Of a stretch of DNA of 64,000 bases, positions 1-44,345 are shown one piece after another. Under the pieces are notes generated by a model. It saw only the letters and a program-made list of their open reading frames with translations, was not told the origin of the DNA and ran no database searches. Each line of letters starts with the position of its first letter. Position 1 is the first letter of the stretch. The stretch comes from a plasmid: the NCBI RefSeq assembly GCF_056746865.1, contig NZ_JBWKMP010000004.1. One strand, given 5' to 3'. The position numbers and the translations under genes were made by a program.

Positions 1-858
1 GTGACTGATCTTCAACAAACTTATTACCGCCAGGTAAAGAACCCGAATCCGGTGTTTACACCCCGTGAAGGTGCCGGAACGCTGAAGTTTTGCGAAAAAC
101 TGATGGAAAAGGCGGTAGGCTTCACCTCCCGTTTTGATTTCGCCATTCATGTGGCACATGCCCGTTCGCGTGGTCTGCGTCGGCGCATGCCACCGGTACT
201 GCGTCGTCGGGCTATTGATGCGCTGCTGCAGGGGCTCTGTTTTCACTATGATCCGCTGGCCAACCGTGTCCAGTGCTCCATCACCACGCTGGCCATTGAG
301 TGTGGACTGGCGACGGAGTCTGATGCCGGAGTACTCTCCATCACCCGTGCCACCCGTGCCCTGACGTCCCTGGCTGAGCTGGGTCTGATTACCTACCAGA
401 CGGAATATGACCCGCTTATTGGTTGCAACATTCCGACCGATATCACGTTCACACCGGCGCTGTTTGCCGCTCTCGATGTGTCTGAGGTGGCGGTGGCTTC
501 CGCACGCCGCAGCCGTGTGGAATGGGAAAACAGACAACGCAAAAAGCAGGGGCTGGATACCCTGGGCATGGATGAACTGATAGCGAAAGCCTGGCGTTTT
601 GTTCGTGAGCGTTTCCGCAGTTACCAGACAGAGCTTAAGTCCCGGGGAATAAAGCGTGCCCGTGCGCGTCGTGATGCGGACAGGGAACGTCAGGATATTA
701 TCACCCTGGTGAAACGGCAGCTGACGCGCGAAATCGCGGAAGGGCGCTTCACTGCCAGTCGTGAGGCGGTAAAACGTGAAGTGGAGCGTCGTGTGAAGGA
801 GCGCATGATTCTGTCACGTAACCGCAATTACAGCCGGCTGGCCACAGCTTCCCCCTGA
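1..858 (+). CDS. repA1: IncFII replication initiator RepA1
   Basis: 285-aa ORF with GTG start at window position 1; sequence ([20 protein letters not shown] ... [14 protein letters not shown]) matches RepFIIA RepA1 from memory. Confidence 0.85.
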
Positions 859-859
859 A

Positions 860-1250
860 AGTGACCTCTTCTGAATAATCCGGCCCGAACCGGAGGCATT
901 CGCACGCCTGAAGCCTGCCAGCGAACAAAAAATCAGCACCACATACAAAAAACAACCTCACTATCCACCTTCTGGAGCATCCGGTTCCCCCTGTTTTTAA
1001 TACAAAATGCGCCTCAGCGACGGGGAATTTTGCTTATCCACATTTAACTGCAAGGGACTTCCCCATAAGGTTACAACCGTTCATGTCATAAAGCGCCAGC
1101 CGCCAGTCTTACAGGGTGCAATGTATCTTTTAAACACCTGTTTATATCTCCTTTAAACTACTTAATTACATTCATTTAAAAAGAAAACCTATTCACTGCC
1201 TGTCCTGTGGACAGACAGATATGCACCTCCCACCGCAAGCGGCGGGCCCC
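860..1250. other. putative replication origin region (oriR) downstream of repA1
   Basis: positional inference from R100-type replicon organisation; AT-rich stretch near 1130-1190; not verified by motif search. Confidence 0.3.
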
Positions 1251-1796
1251 GACCGGAGCCACTTTAGTTACAACACACAAAAACAACCTCCAGAAAAACC
1301 CCGGTCCAGCGCAGAACCGAAACCACAAAGCCCCTCCCTCATAACTGAAAAGCGGCCCCGCCCCGGCCCAAAGGGCCGGAACAGAGTCGCTTTTAATTAT
1401 GAATGTTGTAACTACATCTTCATCGCTGTCAGTCTTCTCGCTGGAAGTTCTCAGTACACGCTCGTAAGCGGCCCTCACGGCCCGCTAACGCGGAGATACG
1501 CCCCGACTTCGGGTAAACCCTCGTCGGGACCACTCCGACCGCGCACAGAAGCTCTCTCATGGCTGAAAGCGGGTATGGTCTGGCAGGGCTGGGGATGGGT
1601 AAGGTGAAATCTATCAATCAGTACCGGCTTACGCCGGGCTTCGGCGGTTTTACTCCTGTATCATATGAAACAACAGAGTGCCGCCTTCCATGCCGCTGAT
1701 GCGGCATATCCTGGTAACGATATCTGAATTGTTATACATGTGTATATACGTGGTAATGACAAAAATAGGACAAGTTAAAAATTTACAGGCGATGCA

Positions 1797-2450
1797 ATGA
1801 TTCAAACACGTAATCAATATCTGCAGTTTATGCTGGTTATGCTGGCTGCATGGGGCATTAGTTGGGGAGCCAGATTTGTCATGGAGCAGGCCGTTCTGCT
1901 TTATGGATCAGGAAAAAACTATTTGTTCTTCAGTCATGGTACTGTTCTGATGTACCTGCTGTGTGTTTTCCTGGTATACCGCCGTTGGATAGCTCCGCTA
2001 CCGGTCGTTGGTCAGCTGCGCAACGTTGGCGTACCGTGGCTGGTCGGTGCGATGGCCGTGGTGTATGTCGGTGTATTTCTGCTCGGTAAGGCGCTGGCTC
2101 TGCCTGCTGAGCCATTTATGACGAAACTTTTTGCCGATAAGTCCATACCTGACGTGATCCTGACGTTGCTGACCATCTTTATCCTTGCCCCGTTGAATGA
2201 GGAAACGCTGTTCCGGGGGATTATGCTGAACGTCTTCCGTTCACGGTACTGCTGGACGATGTGGCTGGGGGCGCTGATAACGTCGTTGTTGTTCGTCGCC
2301 GCGCACAGCCAGTATCAGAACCTGCTGACACTGGCAGAACTGTTCCTGGTGGGGTTGATTACATCAGTGGCCAGGATCAGAAGTGGTGGCCTGCTGCTGC
2401 CGGTATTGCTGCATATGGAAGCAACCACGCTGGGTTTACTGTTTGGTTGA
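1797..2450 (+). CDS. CPBP-family intramembrane metalloprotease (CAAX protease-like)
   Basis: 217-aa hydrophobic ORF with EETLFRG motif typical of CPBP/Abi family; common neighbour of pemIK on IncF plasmids. Confidence 0.65.
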   Translation: MIQTRNQYLQFMLVMLAAWGISWGARFVMEQAVLLYGSGKNYLFFSHGTVLMYLLCVFLVYRRWIAPLPVVGQLRNVGVPWLVGAMAVVYVGVFLLGKALALPAEPFMTKLFADKSIPDVILTLLTIFILAPLNEETLFRGIMLNVFRSRYCWTMWLGALITSLLFVAAHSQYQNLLTLAELFLVGLITSVARIRSGGLLLPVLLHMEATTLGLLFG

Positions 2451-2542
2451 AAGTTATATTTTTATTAAACATTGTGCGTTAAAGCCTGGTGTGTTTTTTT
2501 AGTGGATGTTATATTTAAATATAACTTTTATGGAGGTGAAGA

Positions 2543-2800
2543 ATGCATACCACCCGACTGAAGAGGGTTGGCGGCTCAGTTATGCTGACCGTCCCACCGG
2601 CACTGCTGAATGCGCTGTCTCTGGGCACAGATAATGAAGTTGGCATGGTCATTGATAATGGCCGGCTGATTGTTGAGCCGTACAGACGCCCGCAATATTC
2701 ACTGGCTGAGCTACTGGCACAGTGTGATCCGAATGCTGAAATATCAGCTGAAGAACGAGAATGGCTGGATGCACCGGCGACTGGTCAGGAGGAAATCTGA
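2543..2800 (+). CDS. pemI: PemI antitoxin (MazE-like)
   Basis: 85-aa ORF MHTTRLKRVGGSVMLTVPPALL..., stop immediately before pemK start. Confidence 0.9.
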   Translation: MHTTRLKRVGGSVMLTVPPALLNALSLGTDNEVGMVIDNGRLIVEPYRRPQYSLAELLAQCDPNAEISAEEREWLDAPATGQEEI

Positions 2801-2801
2801 C

Positions 2802-3134
2802 ATGGAAAGAGGGGAAATCTGGCTTGTCTCGCTTGATCCTACCGCAGGTCATGAGCAGCAGGGAACGCGGCCGGTGCTGATTGTCACACCGGCGGCCTTT
2901 AATCGCGTGACCCGCCTGCCTGTTGTTGTGCCCGTAACCAGCGGAGGCAATTTTGCCCGCACTGCCGGCTTTGCGGTGTCGTTGGATGGTGTTGGCATAC
3001 GTACCACAGGTGTTGTACGTTGCGATCAACCCCGGACAATTGATATGAAAGCACGGGGCGGAAAACGACTCGAACGGGTTCCGGAGACTATCATGAACGA
3101 AGTTCTTGGCCGCCTGTCCACTATTCTGACTTGA
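2802..3134 (+). CDS. pemK: PemK toxin (MazF-like endoribonuclease)
   Basis: ATG at 2802 gives 110-aa MERGEIWLVSLDPTAGHEQQGTRPVLIV... ; track ORF 2670-3134 contains it in frame. Confidence 0.9.
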   Translation: MERGEIWLVSLDPTAGHEQQGTRPVLIVTPAAFNRVTRLPVVVPVTSGGNFARTAGFAVSLDGVGIRTTGVVRCDQPRTIDMKARGGKRLERVPETIMNEVLGRLSTILT

Positions 3135-4392: not shown

Positions 4393-5212
4393 GGCACTGT
4401 TGCAAAGTTAGCGATGAGGCAGCCTTTTGTCTTATTCAAAGGCCTTACATTTCAAAAACTCTGCTTACCAGGCGCATTTCGCCCAGGGGATCACCATAAT
4501 AAAATGCTGAGGCCTGGCCTTTGCGTAGTGCACGCATCACCTCAATACCTTTGATGGTGGCGTAAGCCGTCTTCATGGATTTAAATCCCAGCGTGGCGCC
4601 GATTATCCGTTTCAGTTTGCCATGATCGCATTCAATCACGTTGTTCCGGTACTTAATCTGTCGGTGTTCAACGTCAGACGGGCACCGGCCTTCGCGTTTG
4701 AGCAGAGCAAGCGCGCGACCATAGGCGGGCGCTTTATCCGTGTTGATGAATCGCGGGATCTGCCACTTCTTCACGTTGTTGAGGATTTTACCCAGAAACC
4801 GGTATGCAGCTTTGCTGTTACGACGGGAGGAGAGATAAAAATCGACAGTGCGGCCCCGGCTGTCGACGGCCCGGTACAGATACGCCCAGCGGCCATTGAC
4901 CTTCACGTAGGTTTCATCCATGTGCCACGGGCAAAGATCGGAAGGGTTACGCCAGTACCAGCGCAGCCGTTTTTCCATTTCAGGCGCATAACGCTGAACC
5001 CAGCGGTAAATCGTGGAGTGATCGACATTCACTCCGCGTTCAGCCAGCATCTCCTGCAGCTCACGGTAACTGATGCCGTATTTGCAGTACCAGCGTACGG
5101 CCCACAGAATGATGTCACGCTGAAAATGCCGGCCTTTGAATGGGTTCATGTGCAGCTCCATCAGCAAAAGGGGATGATAAGTTTATCACCACCGACTATT
5201 TGCAACAGTGCC
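4393..5212 (-). mobile_element. IS26 (copy 1, 820 bp)
   Basis: 14-bp terminal IRs GGCACTGTTGCAAA at both ends; internal tnp26. Confidence 0.95.
4445..5149 (-). CDS. tnpA: IS26 transposase Tnp26
   Basis: 234-aa [31 protein letters not shown]... Confidence 0.95.
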   Translation of the reverse strand: MNPFKGRHFQRDIILWAVRWYCKYGISYRELQEMLAERGVNVDHSTIYRWVQRYAPEMEKRLRWYWRNPSDLCPWHMDETYVKVNGRWAYLYRAVDSRGRTVDFYLSSRRNSKAAYRFLGKILNNVKKWQIPRFINTDKAPAYGRALALLKREGRCPSDVEHRQIKYRNNVIECDHGKLKRIIGATLGFKSMKTAYATIKGIEVMRALRKGQASAFYYGDPLGEMRLVSRVFEM

Positions 5213-6297
5213 GCCGGCCCGAGATCATGGGGTGGGTGCTGGGCATCGTTTACCGCGTCATTGCCACGCACCTGGTCAAGAAAGCGGGCCATACCCACCA
5301 AGTGGCCAAGACGGGCGCGGTCACCCTGATCCAGCGTTTTGGATCGGCGCTCAATCTGAATGTTCACTTCCACATGCTGTTTCTCGACGGTGTGTATGTC
5401 GAGCAATCCCACGGCTCAGCGCGTTTCCGCTGGGTCAAGGCGCCGACCAGCCCAGAGCTCACCCAGCTGACGCACACCATCGCCCACCGGGTGGGTCGCT
5501 ATCTGGAACGGCAAGGCCTGCTGGAACGGGATGTCGAAAACAGCTATCTGGCCTCGGATGCGGTGGATGACGACCCGATGACACCCCTGCTGGGGCACTC
5601 GATCACTTACCGTATCGCTGTCGGTTCACAGGCGGGGCGAAAGGTGTTCACTTTGCAAACTCTGCCGACCAGTGGTGATCCGTTCGGTGACGGGATTGGC
5701 AAGGTAGCCGGGTCCAGCCTGCACGCCGGCGTGGCGGCCAGGGCCGATGAACGCAAGAAGCTCGAACGGCTGTGCCGGTACATCAGCCGCCCGGCGGTAT
5801 CCGAGAAGCGGCTGTCGTTAACACGAGGCGGCAACGTGCGCTACCAGCTCAAGACGCCGTACCGGGACGGCACCACGCACGTCATTTTCGAACCATTGGA
5901 TTTCATTGCAAGGCTGGCCGCCCTGGTACCGAAGCCCAGAGTCAACCTAACCCGCTTCCACGGGGTGTTCGCACCCAACAGTCGGCACCGGGCGTTGGTC
6001 ACGCCGGCAAAACGGGGCAGGGGCAACAAGGTCAGGGTGGCTGATGAACCGGCAACACCAGCACAACGGCGAGCGTCGATGACATGGGCGCAACGGCTCA
6101 AGCGTGTTTTCAATATCGACATCGAGACCTGCAGCGGCTGCGGCGGCGCCATGAAAGTCATCGCCTGCATTGAAGACCCTATAGTGATCAAGCAGATCCT
6201 TGATCACCTGAAGCACAAAGCCGAAACCAGCGGGACCAGGGCGTTACCCGAAAGCCGGGCGCCACCGGCTGAGCTGCTCCTGGGTCTGTTTGACTGA
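5213..6297 (+). pseudogene. ISCR2 (IS91-family rolling-circle) transposase, 5'-truncated by IS26
   Basis: frame continues from IS26 boundary; HMLFLDGVYV ... CSGCGGAMKVIACIEDPIVIKQILDHL matches ISCR2 transposase C-terminal portion from memory. Confidence 0.7.
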
Positions 6298-6327
6298 CGA
6301 GCCTGAAGGCCAACGATACCAATCAAA

Positions 6328-7212
6328 ATGCTGCGTTCACAGCGCCGCGGCAGGGATCCGCCGTGCTGGTTGTCGGAAAAGGAGCCGCTAGTGGGAAAGA
6401 GGAGGGTAAATTTTCAGCGTTGCTGGCTCCCCGTCAGCCGGATTGGGTTGCATCGCAGGGGTGTCGAAAGAGTCAACTGCGGTCCAAAGCTGTTGGACTT
6501 GGGTGAAAAGGGCGTTTATTCTTCCTATACGTGCCGCGTTCCAGGCGGCGACTATGAGGGCTATGTCGATGCCCATGTGCGCCGGCTGGAGGCGCTACGC
6601 CGGGCCGGTATCGTCGAGCGGATCGACGCCGACCAATGGCGCATCCCCAATGATCTGGTCAGCCGTGCCGCCGCCCATGACGCCGGCCGAGACAGTCAGG
6701 CCAGCGTTCGCGTCCTTTCCCCGGTCGATCTGAACAAACAGATCGGATCGGACGGCGCGACCTGGCTGGACCGGCGGCTGATCCACGGCGAGACGGCCGA
6801 CCTTGCGCCAACCGGCTTCGGGCAACAAGTCCGCGAAGCCATGGACCAGCGCCGCGAGCACCATATCGAACAGGGCGACGCCACCCGCAGCCGGGACAGC
6901 CGCGTCTTCTACCGGCGCAACCTTCTCGCCATCCTGCGGGAGCGCGAGGTAGCCGGCGTCGGATCGGATATGGCTTTGAGTAAGGGCCTGCCGTTCCGCG
7001 CCGCCACGGACGGCGAGAGCGTCAGCGGCAAGTTTACCGGAACCGTGCATCTATCGAGCGGCAAGTTCGCCGTGGTCGAGAAATCCCATGAGTTCACCCT
7101 TGTCCCGTGGCGGCCGATCATCGACCGCCAACTCGGCCGCGAGGTTATGGGCATCGTGCAGGGCGGGTCGGTGTCGTGGCAGTTAGGGCGGCAGAGGGGG
7201 CTGGAACGCTGA
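6328..7212 (+). CDS. conserved hypothetical protein of the floR module (often annotated as truncated virD2-like)
   Basis: ORF between ISCR2 end and floR, as in known ISCR2-floR contexts; start codon uncertain. Confidence 0.45.
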   Translation: MLRSQRRGRDPPCWLSEKEPLVGKRRVNFQRCWLPVSRIGLHRRGVERVNCGPKLLDLGEKGVYSSYTCRVPGGDYEGYVDAHVRRLEALRRAGIVERIDADQWRIPNDLVSRAAAHDAGRDSQASVRVLSPVDLNKQIGSDGATWLDRRLIHGETADLAPTGFGQQVREAMDQRREHHIEQGDATRSRDSRVFYRRNLLAILREREVAGVGSDMALSKGLPFRAATDGESVSGKFTGTVHLSSGKFAVVEKSHEFTLVPWRPIIDRQLGREVMGIVQGGSVSWQLGRQRGLER

Positions 7213-7428
7213 GTGCGCCCATGCCGCATTGCGAAGCAAAAGATAATCGGATAAAATGTAGCAATTCATATTCGTAAGCGTGGAGTAATCAGATGGGAAA
7301 TTCCAAGTCAGCAGACAAGTAAGCCGCAACAACCAGTATTGTTGTTGCGGCGCTCTGTAAGGCTAGTCTCATCTGATTGCTGACGAGCAGACGTCGCCCG
7401 GTATTCCTTAATCGAGGGTTGATTCGTC

Positions 7429-8643
7429 ATGACCACCACACGCCCCGCGTGGGCCTATACGCTGCCGGCAGCACTGCTGCTGATGGCTCCTTTCGACATC
7501 CTCGCTTCACTGGCGATGGATATTTATCTCCCTGTCGTTCCAGCGATGCCCGGCATCCTGAACACGACGCCCGCTATGATCCAACTCACGTTGAGCCTCT
7601 ATATGGTGATGCTCGGCGTGGGCCAGGTGATTTTTGGTCCGCTCTCAGACAGAATCGGGCGACGGCCAATTCTACTTGCGGGCGCAACGGCTTTCGTCAT
7701 TGCGTCTCTGGGAGCAGCTTGGTCTTCAACTGCACCGGCCTTTGTCGCTTTCCGTCTACTTCAAGCAGTGGGCGCGTCGGCCATGCTGGTGGCGACGTTC
7801 GCGACGGTTCGCGACGTTTATGCCAACCGTCCTGAGGGTGTCGTCATCTACGGCCTTTTCAGTTCGATGCTGGCGTTCGTGCCTGCGCTCGGCCCTATCG
7901 CCGGAACATTGATCGGCGAGTTCTTGGGATGGCAGGCGATATTCATTACTTTGGCTATACTGGCGATGCTCGCACTCCTAAATGCGGGTTTCAGGTGGCA
8001 CGAAACCCGCCCTCTGGATCAAGTCAAGACGCGCCGATCTGTCTTGCCGATCTTCGCGAGTCCGGCTTTTTGGGTTTACACTGTCGGCTTTAGCGCCGGT
8101 ATGGGCACCTACTTCGTCTTCTTCTCGACGGCTCCCCGTGTGCTCATAGGCCAAGCGGAATATTCCGAGATCGGATTCAGCTTTGCCTTCGCCACTGTCG
8201 CGCTTGTAATGATCGTGACAACCCGTTTCGCGAAGTCCTTTGTCGCCAGATGGGGCATCGCAGGATGCGTGGCGCGTGGGATGGCGTTGCTTGTTTGCGG
8301 AGCGGTCCTGTTGGGGATCGGCGAACTTTACGGCTCGCCGTCATTCCTCACCTTCATCCTACCGATGTGGGTTGTCGCGGTCGGTATTGTCTTCACGGTG
8401 TCCGTTACCGCGAACGGCGCTTTGGCAGAGTTCGACGACATCGCGGGATCAGCGGTCGCGTTCTACTTCTGCGTTCAAAGCCTGATAGTCAGCATTGTCG
8501 GGACATTGGCGGTGGCACTTTTAAACGGTGACACAGCGTGGCCCGTGATCTGTTACGCCACGGCGATGGCGGTACTGGTTTCGTTGGGGCTGGTGCTCCT
8601 TCGGCTCCGTGGGGCTGCCACCGAGAAGTCGCCAGTCGTCTAA
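7429..8643 (+). CDS. floR: florfenicol/chloramphenicol efflux MFS transporter FloR
   Basis: 404-aa ORF MTTTRPAWAYTLPAALLLMAPFDILASLAMDIYLPVVPAMPGILNTTPAMIQ... Confidence 0.92.
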   Translation: MTTTRPAWAYTLPAALLLMAPFDILASLAMDIYLPVVPAMPGILNTTPAMIQLTLSLYMVMLGVGQVIFGPLSDRIGRRPILLAGATAFVIASLGAAWSSTAPAFVAFRLLQAVGASAMLVATFATVRDVYANRPEGVVIYGLFSSMLAFVPALGPIAGTLIGEFLGWQAIFITLAILAMLALLNAGFRWHETRPLDQVKTRRSVLPIFASPAFWVYTVGFSAGMGTYFVFFSTAPRVLIGQAEYSEIGFSFAFATVALVMIVTTRFAKSFVARWGIAGCVARGMALLVCGAVLLGIGELYGSPSFLTFILPMWVVAVGIVFTVSVTANGALAEFDDIAGSAVAFYFCVQSLIVSIVGTLAVALLNGDTAWPVICYATAMAVLVSLGLVLLRLRGAATEKSPVV

Positions 8644-8670
8644 CCGACGACTGGTAGCAGGCCCGCTCCG

Positions 8671-8976
8671 ATGCGGCGCACTAACCATCGAAACCTCGTG
8701 AATGTCGGTATCCTGTCTGGCAGGATACCGCTCATTTCCCTTGTTCAGTTCATCGCCGTCGCCGAGCATCTGAATTTTCGGCATGCGGCCAAGGCACTTG
8801 GTATCAGCCAGTCGAGCGTCAGCGCGCGTGTGAAAGCGCTGGAGGATAACCTTGGTGTCCTGCTATTTGAGCGCCATGCGCGGGGCGTTCGGCTAACAGA
8901 CGCAGGCAGGCACTTCATGGAGCGTGTCACGGCGGGTGTCGATCAACTCGATCACGCAGTGAAGACCGCGGAGTGA
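8671..8976 (+). pseudogene. LysR-family regulator, truncated (downstream of floR)
   Basis: 101-aa N-terminal HTH fragment; classical floR-delta-lysR arrangement. Confidence 0.7.
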
Positions 8977-9087
8977 CGGGCACTGGCTGGCAATGTCTAG
9001 CAACGGCAGGCATTTCGGCTGAGGGTAAAAGAACTTTCCGCTAAGCGATAGACTGTATGTAAACACAGTATTGCAAGGACGCGGAAC

Positions 9088-9275
9088 ATGCCTCATGTGG
9101 CGGCCAGGACGGCCAGCCGGGATCGGGATACTGGTCGTTACCAGAGCCACCGACCCGAGCAAACCCTTCTCTATCAGATCGTTGACGAGTATTACCCGGC
9201 ATTCGCTGCGCTTATGGCAGAGCAGGGAAAGGAATTGCCGGGCTATGTGCAACGGGAATTTGAAGAATTTCTCCA
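9088..9275 (+). pseudogene. ISCR2 transposase 5' fragment
   Basis: MPHVAARTASRDRDTGRYQSHRPEQTLLYQIVDEYYPAFAALMAEQGKELPGYVQREFEEF then diverges where the tet(A) module joins. Confidence 0.65.
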
Positions 9276-10442
9276 AAGCCCGCGACGCAGCGCCGGCAGG
9301 CAGAGCAAGTAGAGGGCAGCGCCTGCAATCCATGCCCACCCGTTCCACGTTGTTATAGAAGCCGCATAGATCGCCGTGAAGAGGAGGGGTCCGACGATCG
9401 AGGTCAGGCTGGTGAGCGCCGCCAGTGAGCCTTGCAGCTGCCCCTGACGTTCCTCATCCACCTGCCTGGACAACATTGCTTGCAGCGCCGGCATTCCGAT
9501 GCCACCCGAAGCAAGCAGGACCATGATCGGGAACGCCATCCATCCCCGTGTCGCGAAGGCAAGCAGGATGTAGCCTGTGCCGTCGGCAATCATTCCGAGC
9601 ATGAGTGCCCGCCTTTCGCCGAGCCGGGCGGCTACAGGGCCGGTGATCATTGCCTGGGCGAGTGAATGCAGAATGCCAAATGCGGCAAGCGAAATGCCGA
9701 TCGTGGTCGCGTCCCAGTGAAAGCGATCCTCGCCGAAAATGACCCAAAGCGCGGCCGGCACCTGTCCGACAAGTTGCATGATGAAGAAGACCGCCATCAG
9801 GGCGGCGACGACGGTCATGCCCCGGGCCCACCGGAACGAAGCGAGCGGGTTGAGAGCCTCCCGGCGTAACGGCCGGCGTTCGCCTTTGTGCGACTCCGGC
9901 AAAAGGAAACAGCCCGTCAGGAAATTGAGGCCGTTCAAGGCTGCCGCGGCGAAGAACGGAGCGTGGGGGGAGAAACCGCCCATCAGCCCACCGAGCACAG
10001 GTCCCGCGACCATCCCGAACCCGAAACAGGCGCTCATGAAGCCGAAGTGCCGCGCGCGCTCATCGCCATCAGTGATATCGGCAATATAAGCGCCGGCTAC
10101 CGCCCCAGTCGCCCCGGTGATGCCGGCCACGATCCGCCCGATATAGAGAACCCAAAGGAAAGGCGTCGTCGCCATGATGGCGTAGTCGACAGCAGCGCCG
10201 GCCAGCGAGACGAGCAAGACCGGCCGCCGCCCGAAACGATCCGACAGCGCGCCCAGCACAGGTGCGCAGGCAAATTGCATCAACGCATACAGCGCCAGCA
10301 GAATGCCATAGTGGGCGGTGACGTCGTTCGAGTGAACCAGATCGCGCAGGAGGCCCGGCAGCACCGGCATAATCAGGCCGATGCCGACAGCGTCGAGCGC
10401 GACAGTGCTCAGAATTACGATCAGGGGTCTGTTGGGTTTCAC
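9243..10442 (-). CDS. tet(A): tetracycline efflux MFS transporter Tet(A), altered 3' end
   Basis: GTG-start 399-aa VKPNRPLIVILSTVALDAVGIGLIMPVLPGLLRDL...; C-terminus ends ...RRGLWRNSSNSRCT at the ISCR2 junction. Confidence 0.9.
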   Translation of the reverse strand: MKPNRPLIVILSTVALDAVGIGLIMPVLPGLLRDLVHSNDVTAHYGILLALYALMQFACAPVLGALSDRFGRRPVLLVSLAGAAVDYAIMATTPFLWVLYIGRIVAGITGATGAVAGAYIADITDGDERARHFGFMSACFGFGMVAGPVLGGLMGGFSPHAPFFAAAALNGLNFLTGCFLLPESHKGERRPLRREALNPLASFRWARGMTVVAALMAVFFIMQLVGQVPAALWVIFGEDRFHWDATTIGISLAAFGILHSLAQAMITGPVAARLGERRALMLGMIADGTGYILLAFATRGWMAFPIMVLLASGGIGMPALQAMLSRQVDEERQGQLQGSLAALTSLTSIVGPLLFTAIYAASITTWNGWAWIAGAALYLLCLPALRRGLWRNSSNSRCT

Positions 10443-10547
10443 GTCTGGCCTCCGGACCAGCCTCCGCTGGTCCGATTGAACGCGCGGATTCTTTATCACT
10501 GATAAGTTGGTGGACATATTATGTTTATCAGTGATAAAGTGTCAAGC

Positions 10548-24442: not shown

Positions 24443-24631
24443 ACGCCCTTTGTAGGTGCCGTCTTCGATGTGAGAAAGAGCGTCCAGCGATACCAGGCCC
24501 GAGAACAGCGTGAACTGCCGCAATGAGCTTTTGTATGCGTGGGTAACTATACCGCGCACTTCACGCGCGGTGCTCGGTTTTGAGGCCGAAAATTGCAGGA
24601 TCTCAAAGACGTGGTGTAGGGCTAGTGCCAT
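24428..24631 (-). CDS. small hypothetical protein (67 aa)
   Basis: ORF with AAGGA 6 nt upstream of ATG; last gene downstream of the uncharacterised cluster; no recognisable motif. Confidence 0.3.
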   Translation of the reverse strand: MALALHHVFEILQFSASKPSTAREVRGIVTHAYKSSLRQFTLFSGLVSLDALSHIEDGTYKGRTLLR

Positions 24632-24673
24632 GGGGCGTCCTTAAAATAAAGCCCCATAGCATGAGCAGTGTCG

Positions 24674-25081
24674 TTAGTCGTTAAACTCGCCATCTCGCAG
24701 TTGGCGATTGCCTTCAACAATTTCCCACGCACGATTTAACCCTTCACGCATCAGATCGAAAGTACAGTCGCGGTCGTTAGAATAGGCGCCGACAAAAATG
24801 ATGTATTCCATTTCAGGTTCGCCGAACTCAGGCGAGCAGCCAAAGTTATGGAAAGCCGCCTGCCATTTGCCATTGTTCTCATTCGGCATGTGGAAAAGCT
24901 GCATTGGACGCTCATTAGGTGAGAATTCTACAAAGCTCGCTGAACTACCTGCGGATAAGCCTACTCTGGAATGCCCATCAAAAAAGTAATTATGGGCACA
25001 TCTGATACCTTCCACATAGATCACCCGCCCATCTGGCAGCTTTTTCAGGACCAGGTACACTTCACGACGCTGAATACTCAT
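24674..25081 (-). CDS. hypothetical cytoplasmic protein (135 aa)
   Basis: ORF with AGGAA RBS 5 nt upstream of ATG; no signal peptide; no family recognised. Confidence 0.5.
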   Translation of the reverse strand: MSIQRREVYLVLKKLPDGRVIYVEGIRCAHNYFFDGHSRVGLSAGSSASFVEFSPNERPMQLFHMPNENNGKWQAAFHNFGCSPEFGEPEMEYIIFVGAYSNDRDCTFDLMREGLNRAWEIVEGNRQLRDGEFND

Positions 25082-25152
25082 TTTTATTCCTGTAGTTATG
25101 GGTAGCAGTGGAGAGTAAGAATGACCCCAGCCGGTGCCAAGGCCAAAGAACT

Positions 25153-25695
25153 TTAGCCAGCCAGGGAAAGGGCTTCTGCGATGGCTCGGTTGAACTCGGG
25201 GATCGCCTCATCGTAAGACATTCCGCCGCAGGGATGCTTGACGCAAGCCCATGTTACCGGCAGTTCCGGTAAGTGATCCCACATCTGATAGCCCAACACC
25301 AAAATGACATCGGGCCTCAGCTCGGCCACCACTTCTTCAAGCACAGTAGCTGCATCACGCCACATAGCACGCGTGGGACGTATACGGCCAGCATCGCCCA
25401 CAAACTCCTGAACGTAGTTGTAGAAGGCTACATGCTGCCAGGCTTCACGCCGTTCCTCTGCGGTCGGCTCGTCAGTTGTGCCTCGTAGCAGATTGGTGGC
25501 TATCGTGAAAAAACGAAGCCCTGGCTGGAAAGCATGCTCGTTAATAACGTGCTGGGTAAAGTCAGGGGCGTAGTCTTCCGGTTCACCATAGTGGGACTCA
25601 CCCAACACCATAACGCGGACGCCGTAGCGGCTTGAGTGATAATGGTCACCCACCCAAGGCTGAAATTTCACGCTGGAATTAGTTGCTGTTTGCAT
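25153..25695 (-). CDS. hypothetical protein with uracil-DNA-glycosylase-superfamily-like motifs (180 aa)
   Basis: N-terminal VMVLGESHYGEP resembles the UDG water-activating loop (GQDPYH) and C-terminal VKHPCGGMS resembles the HPSPLS motif; start overlaps upstream gene by 17 bp. Confidence 0.45.
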   Translation of the reverse strand: MQTATNSSVKFQPWVGDHYHSSRYGVRVMVLGESHYGEPEDYAPDFTQHVINEHAFQPGLRFFTIATNLLRGTTDEPTAEERREAWQHVAFYNYVQEFVGDAGRIRPTRAMWRDAATVLEEVVAELRPDVILVLGYQMWDHLPELPVTWACVKHPCGGMSYDEAIPEFNRAIAEALSLAG

Positions 25696-26128
25696 ACGTT
25701 ACATTCTCACACTTTGCATCACTGATGGGCATGGACGCATTATAAATATCCTCAAGTGCCAACGTTACCTCGCTTTTGCGCAAGATGGCGTCCCGCAGCA
25801 TCGTCAATCGGAAGTTAGAGCCTTTCCAGTAATACTCTTTGTACTTGTCATCTGCGACGAAACCGCCTTCTCGATGGCGTTCATACACGATAGGTGGCAT
25901 GCCCCCTTTGTCGGACGGGTGAAGCTCCAGCCAACGCTCATATTTTCCGTTCTCGTAGATTGTCAGCCGCTGCGCTGGGTCGGTCAACTTACCCCCGTCC
26001 AGCACCCACCGGCACATCATTGACGCTATTTCTTTTGCTGCGGGATCTATGGTTGATGGGGTGCCAGCATTAGCCTGGTAGGCCATAAGAAACGCCGCGG
26101 ACATAATGAGTGTGTGGCGTAGTTTCAT
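25679..26128 (-). CDS. hypothetical exported protein (149 aa, Sec signal peptide)
   Basis: N-terminus MKLRHTLIMSAAFLMAYQANA; AAGGGA RBS; 10 bp after upstream lipoprotein gene. Confidence 0.55.
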   Translation of the reverse strand: MKLRHTLIMSAAFLMAYQANAGTPSTIDPAAKEIASMMCRWVLDGGKLTDPAQRLTIYENGKYERWLELHPSDKGGMPPIVYERHREGGFVADDKYKEYYWKGSNFRLTMLRDAILRKSEVTLALEDIYNASMPISDAKCENVTYANSN

Positions 26129-26138
26129 GAGAGATCCC

Positions 26139-26678
26139 TTAGTTCAGATTGCATCCAATGCGGAAGGCATTGCCGATTTCAGTGTATTCAGCACGGCTTG
26201 CGCCCGTGAGCTTAGTGGCTTCACTGCTGAAGTGCGTATTGTCGCGGGTGCATTTTTCTGGCGTGGATTGCGCGCCTTTGAGGCACATAGAGTACGCAAC
26301 AGACGGATTAGCGAACTGGGTACGCTGGGCGTAGCCTTCGCACACAGCAGTTGCACGGGCCTGCTTCTGGCGCGCGGTCATCGGTTTGATTGCCTTACTA
26401 TTGGCAGCCTTCAGCTTATAGCAGCTCAGATTACGCGAGCGGGCAGCTGCCTCTAGGGCTTTTGAGCGGCTAAGATTGTCGTTGTATTCAGGATGGCTGG
26501 ATGGGTTAACATTCAGGCTCGGCTGTATCGCGTCAGATGCCTGGCAAAGTTGCTGATCGCTGTATCTGGCAATCTCCGCTGCCTCTATCGCGGCTTTGTC
26601 TGGATGCGGGGCTTTGGGTGCGGGAGTAGCGCATCCTGCTAATGCCAGCGCCAATGAGGCGGCTAATAGTCGTTTCAT
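26139..26678 (-). CDS. hypothetical lipoprotein (179 aa, lipobox LAGC, multiple Cys)
   Basis: MKRLLAASLALALAGCATPA... signal with lipobox; several cysteines suggesting periplasmic disulfides. Confidence 0.55.
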   Translation of the reverse strand: MKRLLAASLALALAGCATPAPKAPHPDKAAIEAAEIARYSDQQLCQASDAIQPSLNVNPSSHPEYNDNLSRSKALEAAARSRNLSCYKLKAANSKAIKPMTARQKQARATAVCEGYAQRTQFANPSVAYSMCLKGAQSTPEKCTRDNTHFSSEATKLTGASRAEYTEIGNAFRIGCNLN

Positions 26679-26890
26679 GGGTTCGAGTGCCCTGTATGCA
26701 AGTTGTAGAAGGGATCAGTTTAGAGATCGGAAATTATTGTACGTTCAGCGCGGTATTTAACCACTAATACCCGTAACGGATTGATTTAGAGCCAGTGGCT
26801 ATCGCTTTTAAATTATCGCCTAATCAGTATCGCATTTAGGTTATCCGATTAGCCAAAAACCGCGGAAAACGTCGTATAGCGCGGGAGTTC

Positions 26891-26966
26891 ACCCTACTGC
26901 GATGATTTCGACTGTTCAAAAAACAGGCTTACCGTACAATATTGTCCGTTTCCCAAACGGCCCCTT
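26891..26966. repeat. inverted copy (X') of the 77-bp hairpin segment
   Basis: reverse complement of 24366-24442 with a few mismatches. Confidence 0.8.
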
Positions 26967-27040
26967 AAATCTTCTCCGCTCCAAAATTGCGGAAACGCTT
27001 TTAAAACCTTGTTCAGTTCTTTGATTAATTCGGTCTGCAT
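26966..27040 (-). pseudogene. partial duplicate of mod 5' end (first ~22 codons) with diverged copy of mod promoter region upstream (27041-27240)
   Basis: encodes MQTELIKELNKVLKAFPQFW identical to Mod N-terminus, then fuses to X'-derived sequence (48-codon frame 26894-27040); upstream 200 bp is ~80% identical to 24180-24365. Confidence 0.7.
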
Positions 27041-27325
27041 GTCATGGCCTTATGACTGTTAGAGATTGAAATGATTGTAAGGTATCGCGTCCAATGCTGG
27101 AACCTGACAGTAATGCTGCTGATACAATTGCGGAAAAATGCACCAAAACAGGTGGTATTTAACATAAGGGATCTTACGCGCACCACCGATCAGGTACTCA
27201 CGACGAAAACACGTCAAAACGCGCAAAACAGCCTGTTTTCTGCCCCCAAAATTGGCTGTTTTTGTGTTGCCGGTTTGTTATCAAAACGACGGATATGATT
27301 TCAGCCAGCAAACGGGCTGAAACCT

Positions 27326-27775
27326 CTATTTTTTCCAGAATTTCCATGATTTTTTCACCATCGGCTGCGTGACAGGTTCTGGTGTTGCCGGTAGCTTGGA
27401 CTCTATCAGTAACAGGGCTTGCTTGAGATCCTCGTTGCGCTTGTCTTTTTCAGCGAGTAGGAGTTCTTTTTCACGCAGCAATGCCTTTACGAGTTCTATT
27501 TCAGCTTTTAAAGCATAGTTTTCATGCAGCAAATTCTGGTCAGTTAACTGTACGGATTCTCCTGCCAAACTCTGCACAGTGCTGCCTGATTGTTCACTGC
27601 CAAGTTGCTGACCAGTAAATGATCCGAAAACACGCAGAAGCTCTGATGTATCTAGCTTTGAAGAACCACTGCTATCTGTGCACTTGGTCAGTTTTCCCTG
27701 CTTAATGTATGACTGCACTGTTGTGCGACTTTTTCCTGTCAGTCTTGCGGCTTCGCTGATTGATACCAGTGCCAT
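27326..27775 (-). CDS. hypothetical HTH DNA-binding protein with C-terminal coiled coil (149 aa)
   Basis: N-terminal SISEAARLTGKSRTTVQSYIKQGKL helix-turn-helix-like; function unknown. Confidence 0.45.
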   Translation of the reverse strand: MALVSISEAARLTGKSRTTVQSYIKQGKLTKCTDSSGSSKLDTSELLRVFGSFTGQQLGSEQSGSTVQSLAGESVQLTDQNLLHENYALKAEIELVKALLREKELLLAEKDKRNEDLKQALLLIESKLPATPEPVTQPMVKKSWKFWKK

Positions 27776-27782
27776 AGATACC

Positions 27783-28022
27783 TCAGAACCGTCCGTATTT
27801 AGCTAAAATTTTCTCTAGCGTGGCTCGTTGTTTTTGGGTCAGCCATGTAAATGAGTCGTTGAGATCGTGCTTGCTTTGCATATCGCTTAGAAATTTAGCC
27901 TCAAAGCTAGTGAGCTGGATTTTTGCGGTCAGTGCATCGTGTAGTGTCTTTTTAAGACCGTTATGCAATTGACTGTCTTGCGTGCTGTTTGTCACCGGAA
28001 TGGGCGTTCTTGTTGTTTTTTC
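27783..28022 (-). pseudogene. 3' end of an unidentified gene truncated by IS26
   Basis: frame runs into the IS26 IR at 28023 without a start codon; ends ...QKQRATLEKILAKYGRF. Confidence 0.35.
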
Positions 28023-28842
28023 GGCACTGTTGCAAATAGTCGGTGGTGATAAACTTATCATCCCCTTTTGCTGATGGAGCTGCACATGAACCCATTCAAA
28101 GGCCGGCATTTTCAGCGTGACATCATTCTGTGGGCCGTACGCTGGTACTGCAAATACGGCATCAGTTACCGTGAGCTGCAGGAGATGCTGGCTGAACGCG
28201 GAGTGAATGTCGATCACTCCACGATTTACCGCTGGGTTCAGCGTTATGCGCCTGAAATGGAAAAACGGCTGCGCTGGTACTGGCGTAACCCTTCCGATCT
28301 TTGCCCGTGGCACATGGATGAAACCTACGTGAAGGTCAATGGCCGCTGGGCGTATCTGTACCGGGCCGTCGACAGCCGGGGCCGCACTGTCGATTTTTAT
28401 CTCTCCTCCCGTCGTAACAGCAAAGCTGCATACCGGTTTCTGGGTAAAATCCTCAACAACGTGAAGAAGTGGCAGATCCCGCGATTCATCAACACGGATA
28501 AAGCGCCCGCCTATGGTCGCGCGCTTGCTCTGCTCAAACGCGAAGGCCGGTGCCCGTCTGACGTTGAACACCGACAGATTAAGTACCGGAACAACGTGAT
28601 TGAATGCGATCATGGCAAACTGAAACGGATAATCGGCGCCACGCTGGGATTTAAATCCATGAAGACGGCTTACGCCACCATCAAAGGTATTGAGGTGATG
28701 CGTGCACTACGCAAAGGCCAGGCCTCAGCATTTTATTATGGTGATCCCCTGGGCGAAATGCGCCTGGTAAGCAGAGTTTTTGAAATGTAAGGCCTTTGAA
28801 TAAGACAAAAGGCTGCCTCATCGCTAACTTTGCAACAGTGCC
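28023..28842 (+). mobile_element. IS26 (copy 2)
   Basis: 820 bp with GGCACTGTTGCAAA IRs. Confidence 0.95.
28086..28790 (+). CDS. tnpA: IS26 transposase Tnp26
   Basis: 234-aa [10 protein letters not shown]... Confidence 0.95.
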   Translation: MNPFKGRHFQRDIILWAVRWYCKYGISYRELQEMLAERGVNVDHSTIYRWVQRYAPEMEKRLRWYWRNPSDLCPWHMDETYVKVNGRWAYLYRAVDSRGRTVDFYLSSRRNSKAAYRFLGKILNNVKKWQIPRFINTDKAPAYGRALALLKREGRCPSDVEHRQIKYRNNVIECDHGKLKRIIGATLGFKSMKTAYATIKGIEVMRALRKGQASAFYYGDPLGEMRLVSRVFEM

Positions 28843-29270
28843 GTAAAGGCGGCCTTATCCACCATTTCCCGAACAAGCAGGCGCTAATATTCGCCCTGTT
28901 CGCGCGTCTGCTGGCAATCATGGAAGAAGCGATTACCGCGCTGATGCAACAGGATGGCGTGAGCTATGGCCGGTTTACCCGCGCCTATCTGAACTATCTG
29001 GCGGATCTCACGGACACCCATGAAAGCCGCCAGCTTATGGTTTTGTCGCTGGCAATGCCCGATGAACCGGTGCTGCGCAAATGCTGGCGCGACTGGATGC
29101 TGGAGAAACTGGCGCAGGGCGATGAGCTGGATAACAGCCCAACCGGCACGCTGGTGCGCTACGCCGCTGACGGCATCTGGCTTTCGGAGTTGACGGAAGG
29201 GATCACCATGAGCGCCGACCACCGTCGCGCGCTGGTTGACTCCCTGAATAAAATGACGCTTCCCGCGTGA
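28843..29270 (+). pseudogene. TetR-family regulator, 5'-truncated (delta-orf3 of the fosA3 module)
   Basis: C-terminal portion of a TetR-like frame beginning at the IS26 boundary. Confidence 0.5.
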
Positions 29271-29289
29271 AGCACAGACTGAGGCCGCG

Positions 29290-30078
29290 ATGCGCTACAA
29301 CATCAATGCCCGTTTTATCTACGACGCCACCGACGGAACCCTGACGCTGCCGCAAAGCGATGAACCGGACAGCCAGCTATCCCTCACCGCCAGCGCCCTG
29401 TTTAACTATTTTCTGCGCCATACCGAGATTGTCAGCCGGGAAGATGTTCTGAAAAAAGTCTGGGATGACAATGGATTAACCTCATCCAACAGCAATCTGA
29501 ATCAGTATCTCAGCATGCTGCGGAAGACCTTTCGCCATTACGGCGTCGATAACATCATCGTCACCGTCTCGCGCGGCTATTTGCAGCTTAATCCCGAGGT
29601 CATTATCGAAGCGCTGGACGACGCGCCGCCGGTTTCACCACAACAGACGCCTGCCGAACCGCCGCCCGTTACGACAACGCCAGACGCACCGCGCTCCGCA
29701 CATGCTCGCGGGATGTGCTGGTACATGGCCGGAGCCTGCTTGCTCACCATTGCCCTGCTTCTGGTTGCCTTCAGTCTGGTCGGCATCAGTGAATCCCAGC
29801 CTATCGCGCTGACCCGCCTCAGCCATAGCCAGTGCGAACTGCTGGCCAGCGATGAAATGCGACGTTCGGTCAGTGAAGAGTCCTACGGCAAAAACTTCGA
29901 TGAGGTACGCCAGCGGCTGAATATTGCCTGTAAACCCGGTGAACGTTTTCTTTTCTTCTACGGCGATCGGCTCGAAACCAACGGGCTGGGGCGCGTGTTC
30001 CTTGCCCACTGCGCCATGCATGAAGATAACCCGTTCAGCTATTGCGATAACTACTTTTACTACTCCTGGAAGCCGTAA
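29290..30078 (+). CDS. CadC/OmpR-type winged-helix transcriptional regulator (orf2 of fosA3 module)
   Basis: 262-aa ORF; N-terminal winged-helix-like region, C-terminal TM segment. Confidence 0.55.
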   Translation: MRYNINARFIYDATDGTLTLPQSDEPDSQLSLTASALFNYFLRHTEIVSREDVLKKVWDDNGLTSSNSNLNQYLSMLRKTFRHYGVDNIIVTVSRGYLQLNPEVIIEALDDAPPVSPQQTPAEPPPVTTTPDAPRSAHARGMCWYMAGACLLTIALLLVAFSLVGISESQPIALTRLSHSQCELLASDEMRRSVSEESYGKNFDEVRQRLNIACKPGERFLFFYGDRLETNGLGRVFLAHCAMHEDNPFSYCDNYFYYSWKP

Positions 30079-30596
30079 TGAGACTCGCGCCGCGTCCGTT
30101 CTTTGCCCTCTGCGTTCTGGTATTTATTGCCGCCGCCGCGTTTAGCGCCTGGCGGCTGCTGCCTGCCGACAACGCGGGTGTCATGAGCTGTTCCACTAAG
30201 GGCATCATGCGCTTTGAGAACATGGACAAAGAGAACGTTAACGGCAATATTCACTTCAATTTTGGCGCGCAGGGTAAAGGCTCGATGGTGGTCGAAGGTT
30301 ACACCGACTCCGCCGCCGGCTGGCTCTACCTGCAACGCTACGTGAAGTTTACCTACAGCAGCAAACGCATCTCGGCCACCGAGCGTCATTACCGCATCAA
30401 TCAGTGGGAATCGAGCGCCTCCTCGATTGATGAATCGCCGAACGTGATTTTCGACTACTTTATGCGCGAGATGTCCGACAGCCACGACGGGCTGTTTCTC
30501 AACGCTCAGAAGCTCAACGAAAAGGCTATCTTGCTCAGCTCTATCAATTCACCGCTGTGGATCTGCACGTTGAAATCCGGCAGTAAGCTGAACTAA
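30078..30596 (+). CDS. hypothetical membrane-anchored protein (orf1 of fosA3 module)
   Basis: 172-aa ORF with N-terminal TM helix. Confidence 0.5.
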   Translation: MRLAPRPFFALCVLVFIAAAAFSAWRLLPADNAGVMSCSTKGIMRFENMDKENVNGNIHFNFGAQGKGSMVVEGYTDSAAGWLYLQRYVKFTYSSKRISATERHYRINQWESSASSIDESPNVIFDYFMREMSDSHDGLFLNAQKLNEKAILLSSINSPLWICTLKSGSKLN

Positions 30597-30600
30597 CCCG

Positions 30601-31017
30601 TCAATCAAAAAAGACCATCCCCTTGTAGGGGCGTTCGCGACAGGCGGCCAGCCGCTGCGCCAGATTCCCCACATGCAGCTCCAGCTTATGGCCGTCAGGG
30701 TCGAGAAAATAGTAAGACGCCCCTTCACTGCGGTTATCTTTCCATACCTCAGCCCCCGCCTGCGCCAGCAGAGCCACCACCCCGGCAAACTCTTCTTCCG
30801 CCACGCTGAAGGCGTAGTGGGTATAGTCGCTTTCCTGAGGGGGCGTTTTACGCCGCTGCTCATCCAGCGACAAGCACAGCCACAGCGCCCCACAGGAGAG
30901 ATAGGCTCCGCTATCCCAGCTGGCGTGCAGGCGCATTCCAGGTAACTGCTGATAAAATGCCAGGCTTGACGCCAGATCGCTGACCGCCAGCGTCAGATGA
31001 TTCAATCCCTGCAGCAT
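30601..31017 (-). CDS. fosA3: fosfomycin thiol transferase FosA3
   Basis: 138-aa [49 protein letters not shown]... matches FosA3 from memory. Confidence 0.9.
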
Positions 31018-31339
31018 GACTTTTCCTCCCGTTATCAAACCCTGTTGTAAACTGTGATCGGCGACGCATCCCCTCCCGGCCTCACCTCATCACCGGCTAA
31101 AAAGCGCATTTTTTGCGTTTAGCCTGCCATCGGAAACCTGCGCCTCGCCACACTAATCCCCGCTCTATGTTACCCCTTTTTTGAAATCATTTAGCAATCC
31201 AATAACATTTCATCCCCCCGGAAAAAGCGGGCTAAAAATCGCCTTATTGAAGACCAAATCAGCACCGACATTACAGCATAAAGACATAAATAAACGCCCT
31301 AAAAAGACTAAATCACAGAGCTATATCCTAAATAATTAC

Positions 31340-32900
<1,561 letters not shown>

Positions 32901-33158
32901 CTGTCAGACCAAGTTTACTCATACTGAAATAATTGGGGGGTGATTACCACCGTAAATTTTTCCCAGACGGTAAAAAGAATTACAGACTTTTATCAACTAA
33001 AAAAGTGGCCTGAATATCAGCACTACCGTCAATACCATTTCAGTAAATCAGGATAGGGAAAAATTGGCAAACCCAGTTCTTCACTTGCTCTGCGGGTTCT
33101 GTCACCCTGACGTCATACGGTAATCCCCCCCAATTCATTAATCGACAAGGTCATCCTG

Positions 33159-33635
33159 ATGAAACAAATTACCATGAGCGATATGCAGCAACAGAGCGCA
33201 GCGGCTGTGCAATCGCCTCGGCTCCGCGCGCACCGTAATTTCCATCCAGAATTAAGCGATTCGGTCCAACGTCTGGCTATTGCCATGGAACCTGGGACCT
33301 ACGTGCGCCCGCACCGACACCCTCACACCTTCGAGCTACTGTTGCCATTAAGGGGTCGTTTCGTGGTGCTGAATTTTGACGATCGGGGTACCGTCACCCA
33401 TCGGGCGATATTGGGGGAAACCTGTACGGTGCTGGAGATGGCCGCAGGAACCTGGCATGCCGTGCTGTCGCTGGATACCGGTGGCATAATTTTTGAAGTA
33501 AAACACGGTGGCTATCAACCCGTGGCTGCCGATGACTATGCGCACTGGGCTCCAGCGGAAGGAGAACCAGGAACCACGGAGCTTATGGCCTGGTATGCGC
33601 AAGCGCAGGTGGGCGACAGCACTTTTGCCGTCTAA
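33159..33635 (+). CDS. orf477 / WbuC-family cupin protein
   Basis: 477-bp ORF immediately 3' of blaCTX-M as in ISEcp1-blaCTX-M-orf477 units. Confidence 0.8.
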   Translation: MKQITMSDMQQQSAAAVQSPRLRAHRNFHPELSDSVQRLAIAMEPGTYVRPHRHPHTFELLLPLRGRFVVLNFDDRGTVTHRAILGETCTVLEMAAGTWHAVLSLDTGGIIFEVKHGGYQPVAADDYAHWAPAEGEPGTTELMAWYAQAQVGDSTFAV

Positions 33636-33681
33636 GGCGATAAACAAAAACGGAATGAGTTTCCCCATTCCGTTTCCGCTA

Positions 33682-34611
<930 letters not shown>

Positions 34612-34684
34612 TTACCTGAAGCGAGCCACAACGCGTCCGATTTTATGCTTCCGAAAGGCAAATACGGACGTCGCCAGAATGAAA

Positions 34685-34926
34685 CCTAAATTCCACGTGT
34701 GTTTTTTATTAGCTTCAAAAATCACTATTTCACGAAGAATTTAGACTGCTTCTCACACATTGTAACATTATTTACAACCACCTTTCAATCATTTTTGATA
34801 AATCATTGATTTCATCTTTGCTGCAATGATACTTAATAAACTCTGCAAGTTATCCACAGAGCAACACTCAATTTTATTGATGATATTCTTATTATACCAG
34901 ACATTTTTCATACACTCCCTTGTACG
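34685..34926 (-). mobile_element. ISEcp1 right end (IRR and 3' interior), truncated by IS26; ~127-bp spacer to blaCTX-M
   Basis: CCTAAATTCCACGT (ISEcp1 IRR) at 34685-34698; element cut at the IS26 IR at 34927. Confidence 0.7.
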
Positions 34927-35746
34927 GGCACTGTTGCAAAGTTAGCGATGAGGCAGCCTTTTGTCTTATTCAAAGGCCTTACATTTCAAAAACTCTGCTT
35001 ACCAGGCGCATTTCGCCCAGGGGATCACCATAATAAAATGCTGAGGCCTGGCCTTTGCGTAGTGCACGCATCACCTCAATACCTTTGATGGTGGCGTAAG
35101 CCGTCTTCATGGATTTAAATCCCAGCGTGGCGCCGATTATCCGTTTCAGTTTGCCATGATCGCATTCAATCACGTTGTTCCGGTACTTAATCTGTCGGTG
35201 TTCAACGTCAGACGGGCACCGGCCTTCGCGTTTGAGCAGAGCAAGCGCGCGACCATAGGCGGGCGCTTTATCCGTGTTGATGAATCGCGGGATCTGCCAC
35301 TTCTTCACGTTGTTGAGGATTTTACCCAGAAACCGGTATGCAGCTTTGCTGTTACGACGGGAGGAGAGATAAAAATCGACAGTGCGGCCCCGGCTGTCGA
35401 CGGCCCGGTACAGATACGCCCAGCGGCCATTGACCTTCACGTAGGTTTCATCCATGTGCCACGGGCAAAGATCGGAAGGGTTACGCCAGTACCAGCGCAG
35501 CCGTTTTTCCATTTCAGGCGCATAACGCTGAACCCAGCGGTAAATCGTGGAGTGATCGACATTCACTCCGCGTTCAGCCAGCATCTCCTGCAGCTCACGG
35601 TAACTGATGCCGTATTTGCAGTACCAGCGTACGGCCCACAGAATGATGTCACGCTGAAAATGCCGGCCTTTGAATGGGTTCATGTGCAGCTCCATCAGCA
35701 AAAGGGGATGATAAGTTTATCACCACCGACTATTTGCAACAGTGCC
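34927..35746 (-). mobile_element. IS26 (copy 4)
   Basis: 820 bp with IS26 IRs. Confidence 0.95.
34979..35683 (-). CDS. tnpA: IS26 transposase Tnp26
   Basis: 234-aa [10 protein letters not shown]... Confidence 0.95.
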
Positions 35747-43879: not shown

Positions 43880-44345
43880 TTTCGGGCTGCCGCTACGGTC
43901 CGATGCGTGAAAACCCCTGGCTTGCAGCGACCGTTCCGGTCGCGCCGCCTCTGTCGCGCCGTGGCCTGCGCTCCCGGCATCCCGGCAAAAGGCCGCCGGG
44001 ATGTAAGGGGCAACGCCGTTTCGCGCACGCGCTCTCCGTCGTTGCGGCGGGCCCCTGCTCATTGCCTGCCGGGTGCCACACACCCGTATGAGTCCCTGTC
44101 GCCGGGGGCATAGACAGCCACAACCTGCCGCACTGACTGTCCAGGGTAAATGAACAGCCCACAAAATTTTTTACCCAAAAACCGGTAAAAAATTTTGCGT
44201 TCTGCCCAGGACAGGTGCGTCAGGCCGTGGCAGTGATGCCCCTTGCGGCGAAGGTTCTCAAACGGGTGAAGTTCATACCACAGGGAATACAGCAGCAGGT
44301 TCCCGCGAAACGTCAAAACCGCGGCTCCCGAAACTCAACGGGTGA
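43880..44345 (+). repeat. Frpo/ssi-like leading-region repeat, copy 1 (diverged)
   Basis: ~85-90% identical to copies at 47090-47650 and 52565-53140; GC-rich stem-forming segment followed by conserved promoter-like core. Confidence 0.6.

Follow-up and report, generated by a model that had tools for sequence, protein, structure and literature searches.

The C-terminus of Tet(A) in a plasmid-borne floR-tetA-strAB-sul2 module is encoded by an ISCR2 remnant joined to a Tn1721 segment

In qacEdelta1, found in the 3' conserved segment of class 1 integrons, the 3' end of a resistance-associated membrane-protein gene was replaced at a rearrangement joint and the new C-terminus then became fixed and ubiquitous, although the truncation removes part of the functional protein and weakens its activity. 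An early description of a floR-Tn1721-Tn5393 region is said to be that of plasmid pMBSF1, given by Blickwede and Schwarz in 2004.

IncA/C plasmids that carry a module of floR, tetA, strAB and sul2 have come from tetracycline-resistant strains, the earliest listed of which was isolated in 1995 (Fernández-Alarcón et al., PLoS One 2011, PMC3155540). The 92.5-kb IncFII (F33:A-:B-) plasmid pECB11, from chicken faeces in China, and its relatives were listed with 'delta-tetA-tetR', similarity to the IncC plasmid pAR060302 was noted, and the upstream ISCR2 was described as short of 527 bp at the terIS end (Wang et al., mSphere 2018, PMC6052338). At the protein level, 28 TetA variants from K. pneumoniae have been grouped in clades (Fan et al., AAC 2025, PMC12888893). 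Clade II is defined by the replacement of nine C-terminal residues, SGAGQRADR, by RNSSNSRCT, and its tetA is followed downstream by floR and by 'hp225', a hypothetical gene of 225 bp that overlaps tetA (PMC12888893). Both the joint and the fused tail are already published and very common. The addition made here is a small one, namely that 'hp225' belongs to an ISCR2 remnant of 307 bp that is fused to tet(A) through a microhomology of 6 bp.

The DNA analysed was a stretch of 64,000 nucleotides from a plasmid (the window), whose first 25 kb were 100% identical to positions 1-25,000 of the E. coli plasmid pECB11. Positions 5209-14595 contain a truncated ISCR2, a DUF3363/virD2-like gene, floR, a lysR remnant, an ISCR2 remnant, tetA, tetR, strB, strA and sul2 (Table 1). 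This region aligned with positions 24997-34384 of pAR060302 (IncC, IncA/C) at 99.9% identity over 9,388 bp, and a 140-nt string across the tet(A) junction was identical in the two plasmids. Gene order and junctions are those of the IncC ARI-B-type floR-tetA-strAB-sul2 module as it occurs in pAR060302. The window differs in that its module sits in an F33:A-:B- IncFII plasmid (pECB11), in that the upstream ISCR2 is short by 527 bp owing to IS26, and in seven point differences within the module, including those that give A93T in TetA and G182D in TetR. The alignment to pAR060302 begins at window position 5209 (24997 in pAR060302), which reproduces the published figure for the 527-bp loss.

Table 1 Features of the module around the tet(A) junction (window coordinates)
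Feature	Position	Strand	Description
IS26	4393-5213		adjoins the truncated upstream ISCR2
Upstream ISCR2 copy	5214-6297	(+)	terIS end short by 527 bp, lost to IS26
floR	7429-8643	(+)	NCBIfam FloR, 899 bits; gene carried in by ISCR2
Truncated lysR	8671-8976	(+)	101 codons, N-terminal DNA-binding part only; boundary at 8970
ISCR2 (ISVsa3) remnant	8970-9276	(+)	first 307 bp from the terIS end: 118 bp plus 63 tnpA codons
Chimeric ORF	9088-9312	(+)	74 codons: 63 of ISCR2 tnpA plus 11 antisense to the 3' end of tet(A)
tet(A) CDS	9243-10442	(-)	GTG start at 10442, 399 codons, TAG stop at 9243-9245
ISCR2-derived part of the tet(A) frame	9243-9270	(-)	third base of codon 391, codons 392-399 and stop
Parental overlap CTCCAA (TTGGAG on the tet(A) strand)	9271-9276		6 bp present in both parents
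Tn1721-derived segment	9271-11497		2,227 bp with tet(A), tetR(A) and a short remnant of a transposase
Divergent tet(A)/tetR promoter-like sites	10493-10545		intergenic; 4 found against 0.6 expected in shuffles
tetR(A) repressor gene	10548-11198	(+)	divergent from tet(A); NCBIfam TetR, 304.5 bits; RefSeq annotation

Several further observations concern the plasmid as a whole. Within floR, window positions 7906 and 8134 differ from pAR060302, and the AMRFinderPlus identity of 99.75% corresponds to one amino-acid change. An ATG at 5140, inside IS26, opens a hybrid ORF of 385 codons that runs into the ISCR2 transposase frame. Three other copies of IS26 (28022-28842, 31339-32159 and 34927-35746) bracket a segment with fosA3 (30601-31017) and a second segment with a truncated blaTEM (32163-32900) and blaCTX-M-55 (33682-34557); a partial IS26 of 231 nt lies at 17830-18060. 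The stretch from 28022 to 35746 is a typical pHN7A8-type resistance region. In the F-plasmid backbone (44066-53057) three direct repeats of about 204 nt, 95% identical, begin at 44066, 47378 and 52854, and a pair of 300-nt direct repeats, 94% identical, begins at 47048 and 52524.

The product of the tet(A) frame, a class A tetracycline efflux transporter of the MFS type, scored 891.5 bits against the NCBIfam Tet(A) model NF012193 (cut-off 840), with residues 2-395 aligned, and residues 4-384 were covered by a family-level NCBI model; tetR(A) is divergent, with a shared promoter region. In pECB11, AMRFinderPlus called tet(A) at 9246-10442. All 399 residues are identical to those of TetA-2.2 of Fan et al., the allele that combines A93T with the RNSSNSRCT tail, and the surroundings agree as well: the same tail substitution, floR as the downstream neighbour and an overlapping 225-bp ORF. 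TetA-2.2 was listed on IncFII(pHN7A8)-type plasmids (PMC12888893). The AMRFinderPlus identity of the window's TetA was 99.75% rather than 100% because of A93T. For the fused allele in pAR060302 it was 100%; the fused allele itself, therefore, sits in the reference catalogue. The start used by databases is the GTG at 10442 (399 aa). The frame is open further upstream (10443-10517), to an ATG at 10517, giving a mechanical ORF of 424 codons that overlaps the tetR promoter region, which may be why some annotation tools produce longer tet(A) entries.

The copy of tet(A) in Tn1721, as carried by the Aeromonas plasmid pFBAOT6 (reference positions 1858-3057), was taken as the native reference. The likeness to Tn1721 extends over the 2,227 bp of tetR-tetA, with the same divergent promoter region: the segment was 99.91% identical to reference positions 803-3029, with two mismatches, at 10166 and 11092. 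The same two positions also differ from pAR060302; the first gives A93T in TetA, a marker of TetA-2.2, and the second G182D in TetR(A). On one side the match breaks off at 9271, within tet(A), and on the other at 11497. A complete Tn1721 carries, besides its inverted repeats, tnpA and tnpR, with pecM lying downstream of tet(A); the segment here has neither pecM/EamA nor the transposase nor the inverted repeats, and it stops 28 nt short of the end of tet(A).

Nucleotides 1-1172 of tet(A) were identical to Tn1721 except for G277A (A93T), whereas in nucleotides 1173-1200 nearly every base differed. The translated ORF ends ...LPALRRGLWRNSSNSRCT, followed by TAG at 9243-9245. Residues 391-399 are changed at nine positions out of nine, from SGAGQRADR to RNSSNSRCT, with no change in length (399 aa). 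An earlier note on this DNA, made from the sequence alone, had proposed that the last residues of Tet(A) are encoded by a junction with an ISCR2 fragment and not by native tet(A). A three-way comparison of the window, ISCR2 and Tn1721 agreed with this. From 9270 downward the coding strand of tet(A) corresponds, in reverse complement, to the first 307 bp of ISCR2, and 9243-9270 is the antisense of ISCR2 tnpA codons 52-61. The match to ISCR2 extended up to 9276 and that to Tn1721 ran from 9271 onward, which places the crossover point somewhere within 9271-9276. That 6 bp are common to both parents suggests a microhomology joint; this fits illegitimate recombination but is no proof of the mechanism. 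The same comparison supported the further claim that the C-terminus is a fusion formed by joining tet(A) to the 5' fragment of ISCR2, and this claim also survived alignment with the Tn1721 reference, as the two C-termini are not identical.

The unchanged length of 399 aa might speak for an ordinary allelic variant, produced by point mutations or a frameshift, or the altered C-terminus might be a chimera of assembly, in either case with no mobile-element junction. However, a stretch of 307 nt that runs on past nucleotide 1172 of tet(A) is identical to ISCR2, identities of such length are far beyond chance, and hundreds of complete genomes, assembled independently of one another, carry the same joint. 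An ordinary variant or an assembly chimera is refuted by the alignment to ISCR2, and we give such a reading practically no chance of being correct. In the account of a recombination joint, the length of the protein needs no special explanation, since any frame that is not under selection can be expected to meet a stop within a few tens of codons.

As the window holds no second 5' end of ISCR2, external copies, including that of pAR060302, were used as references. ISCR2 (ISVsa3) is a rolling-circle element of the IS91 family. The remnant at 8970-9276 was 100% identical over 307 nt, from the terIS end, to intact ISCR2/ISVsa3 copies in two other plasmids (positions 687-993 of one reference and 24475-24781 of pAR060302), and the tnpA ATG of ISCR2 corresponds to window position 9088. 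No second, intact 5' end of ISCR2 was found in the window, where this end occurs once. The earlier note had given the fragment as 9088-9275; this covers its coding part, but the real extent is 8970-9276, with a start 118 nt upstream of the ATG. Neither an intact transposase gene nor an oriIS end accompanies the remnant: only 63 of about 497 codons are present, adjoining tet(A), and the NCBIfam model for ISCR clade Ia matched residues 11-63 only. The upstream copy of ISCR2 is cut by IS26, and there is, therefore, no intact ISCR2 transposase gene in the module or in the window.

At its other end the remnant adjoins lysR. LysR-family models have about 300 positions, of which only the N-terminal 80 or so were matched by the lysR remnant, and the last codon and TGA stop of the remnant are ISCR2 sequence. 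With lysR cut at 8970 and tet(A) at the opposite end, the 307-bp fragment of ISCR2 has therefore given two genes new 3' ends.

The chimeric ORF that begins at the tnpA ATG is, by translation and length, 'hp225' (225 bp) of Fan et al., and in RefSeq records of E. coli it is labelled 'IS91 family transposase'. It is probably a non-functional remnant. Fan et al. attribute the tail to the overlap with 'hp225', with no mention of ISCR2, whereas here 'hp225' is the start of ISCR2 tnpA. They give the overlap as 27 bp; that measured here between the ORF and tet(A) was 70 nt, of which 28-34 nt come from ISCR2. Between 8500 and 9780, a crude scan that covered positions 8500-10700 found neither promoter-like sites within the ISCR2 remnant nor terminator-like sites beyond the end of tet(A). 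Antisense transcription from the remnant into tet(A) was considered and is unsupported, the scan for promoters being empty there.

To see where the replaced residues lie in the protein, we aligned 33 Tet(A)/Tet(C)-type proteins sharing 56-97% identity with the query. Their sequences are conserved up to about L385/R387-388, and the tails beyond this point vary in sequence and range from about 3 to more than 40 residues. The tails of the closest relatives resemble the native one, and SGAGQRADR is, therefore, the ancestral tail. An AlphaFold2 model built on the same alignment (pLDDT 87.3, pTM 0.88) showed an MFS transporter core that is helical through its last transmembrane helix (369-386). The sole stretch with pLDDT below 50 was 391-399, exactly the residues that were replaced. 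The new residues follow the last transmembrane helix and lie in an unconserved tail that is modelled with low confidence and is probably unstructured. From the known 12-helix topology of the pump family, the tail would be cytoplasmic, after transmembrane helix 12. A Kyte-Doolittle hydropathy scan revealed nothing about the tail; the PDB copy searched holds no solved structure of Tet(A), and in the nearest structure there, NorA, the alignment stops at residue 363. A tail that is variable across the family and probably unstructured is the reason to expect that the pump still works, and in contrast with qacEdelta1 only a short tail after the last helix has been exchanged.

The effect of the fusion on efflux was called unknown in the earlier note, and here the literature takes matters further. 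Fan et al. cloned each variant with its own tetR on a low-copy plasmid and determined MICs in K. pneumoniae and in E. coli MG1655 (PMC12888893). A tetracycline MIC like that of the empty vector is reported only for TetA-2.5, 2.7, 2.8 and 6.1. TetA-2.1 and TetA-2.2, the latter being the exact protein of the window, were both cloned, and neither is among these four variants that lost resistance. According to these published results, tetracycline resistance is retained.

These results bear on the reading that the fusion inactivates or cripples tet(A), leaving a 'delta-tetA' remnant, and that the tetracycline resistance of the hosts comes from elsewhere. The name 'delta-tetA-tetR' was indeed written for pECB11 and its relatives (Wang et al. 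2018, PMC6052338), and the native 3' end and stop codon of the gene are indeed absent. However, cloned TetA-2.1 and TetA-2.2 stand outside the four variants with empty-vector MICs in both E. coli MG1655 and K. pneumoniae (PMC12888893). Moreover, the protein scores above the curated cut-off for Tet(A), the pAR060302 copy is a 100% match to the AMRFinderPlus reference, the allele is found on more than 1,000 plasmids, and the change is confined to the unconserved tail of low model confidence. A crippled tet(A) has been largely refuted already and is very improbable.

The joint proved to be common. When a 57-nt end sequence was used as the query at a coverage of at least 80%, 1,060 plasmids in PLSDB matched the fused joint and 3,349 the native end of tet(A), so that the fused form makes up about a quarter of the tet(A)-bearing plasmids there. 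A query of 120 nt spanning the junction was present in 575 of 5,426 complete E. coli genomes. Full-length matches included Klebsiella, Salmonella, Shewanella, Plesiomonas and E. albertii. The exact 399-aa protein was found on at least 1,000 contigs. The joint is identical across many plasmid types, and this points to a single origin followed by spread of the whole module.

Such prevalence could also be taken as a sign that the new tail alters the pump, in its stability, its spectrum towards minocycline, tigecycline and eravacycline or its fitness cost, and so aided the spread of the fused allele, which would then be more than a mere passenger. The share of about a quarter among tet(A)-bearing plasmids in PLSDB is in keeping with this, as is one result for variants with G300E: the variant with the fused tail (TetA-2.6) gave higher MICs of minocycline and tigecycline than that with the native tail (TetA-1.8) (PMC12888893). 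But TetA-2.6 and TetA-1.8 are a single pair, the tail is variable, nearly absent in some homologues and modelled as unstructured, and a simpler explanation of the prevalence is that the allele is linked to floR, strAB and sul2 within a module of high mobility. We regard a contribution of the altered pump to the spread of the allele as unlikely. Much the same weight, that of an outside chance, is given to the broader form of this idea, in which either the tail tunes the stability of TetA or its activity towards newer tetracyclines, or the altered 3' context shifts the expression of tet(A), and one or the other aided the spread. The altered context may consist of the loss of the native 3' region together with an ISCR2 remnant and floR-lysR' genes that are aimed into the end of tet(A). 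It seems probable that the junction is functionally neutral, although the tail may have a modest quantitative effect, as the pair of G300E variants hints.

Taken as a whole, the account that we consider very likely is that of a known joint between Tn1721 tetR-tetA and an ISCR2 remnant, which was born of microhomology, had a single origin, left the pump working and spread as a passenger. Illegitimate recombination at the 6 bp CTCCAA would have deleted the final 28 nt of tet(A) with all of Tn1721 that lay downstream, and the same event would have dropped the part of ISCR2 beyond base 307. The antisense strand of ISCR2 carries the tet(A) frame on for nine codons to a TAG, leaving a protein that still has 399 residues. 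Having probably arisen once, the joint would have travelled as a passenger of the module among IncC, IncF and other plasmids and into chromosomes. The Tn1721 piece is without its transposon ends and both copies of ISCR2 are incomplete, so that neither element can now mobilise the segment.

The ISCR2 parentage gives TetA Clade II a concrete origin and provides a handy sequence marker for tracking the module. The fused allele is among the commonest forms of tet(A), and it should be annotated as an intact, working resistance gene and not as 'delta-tetA'.
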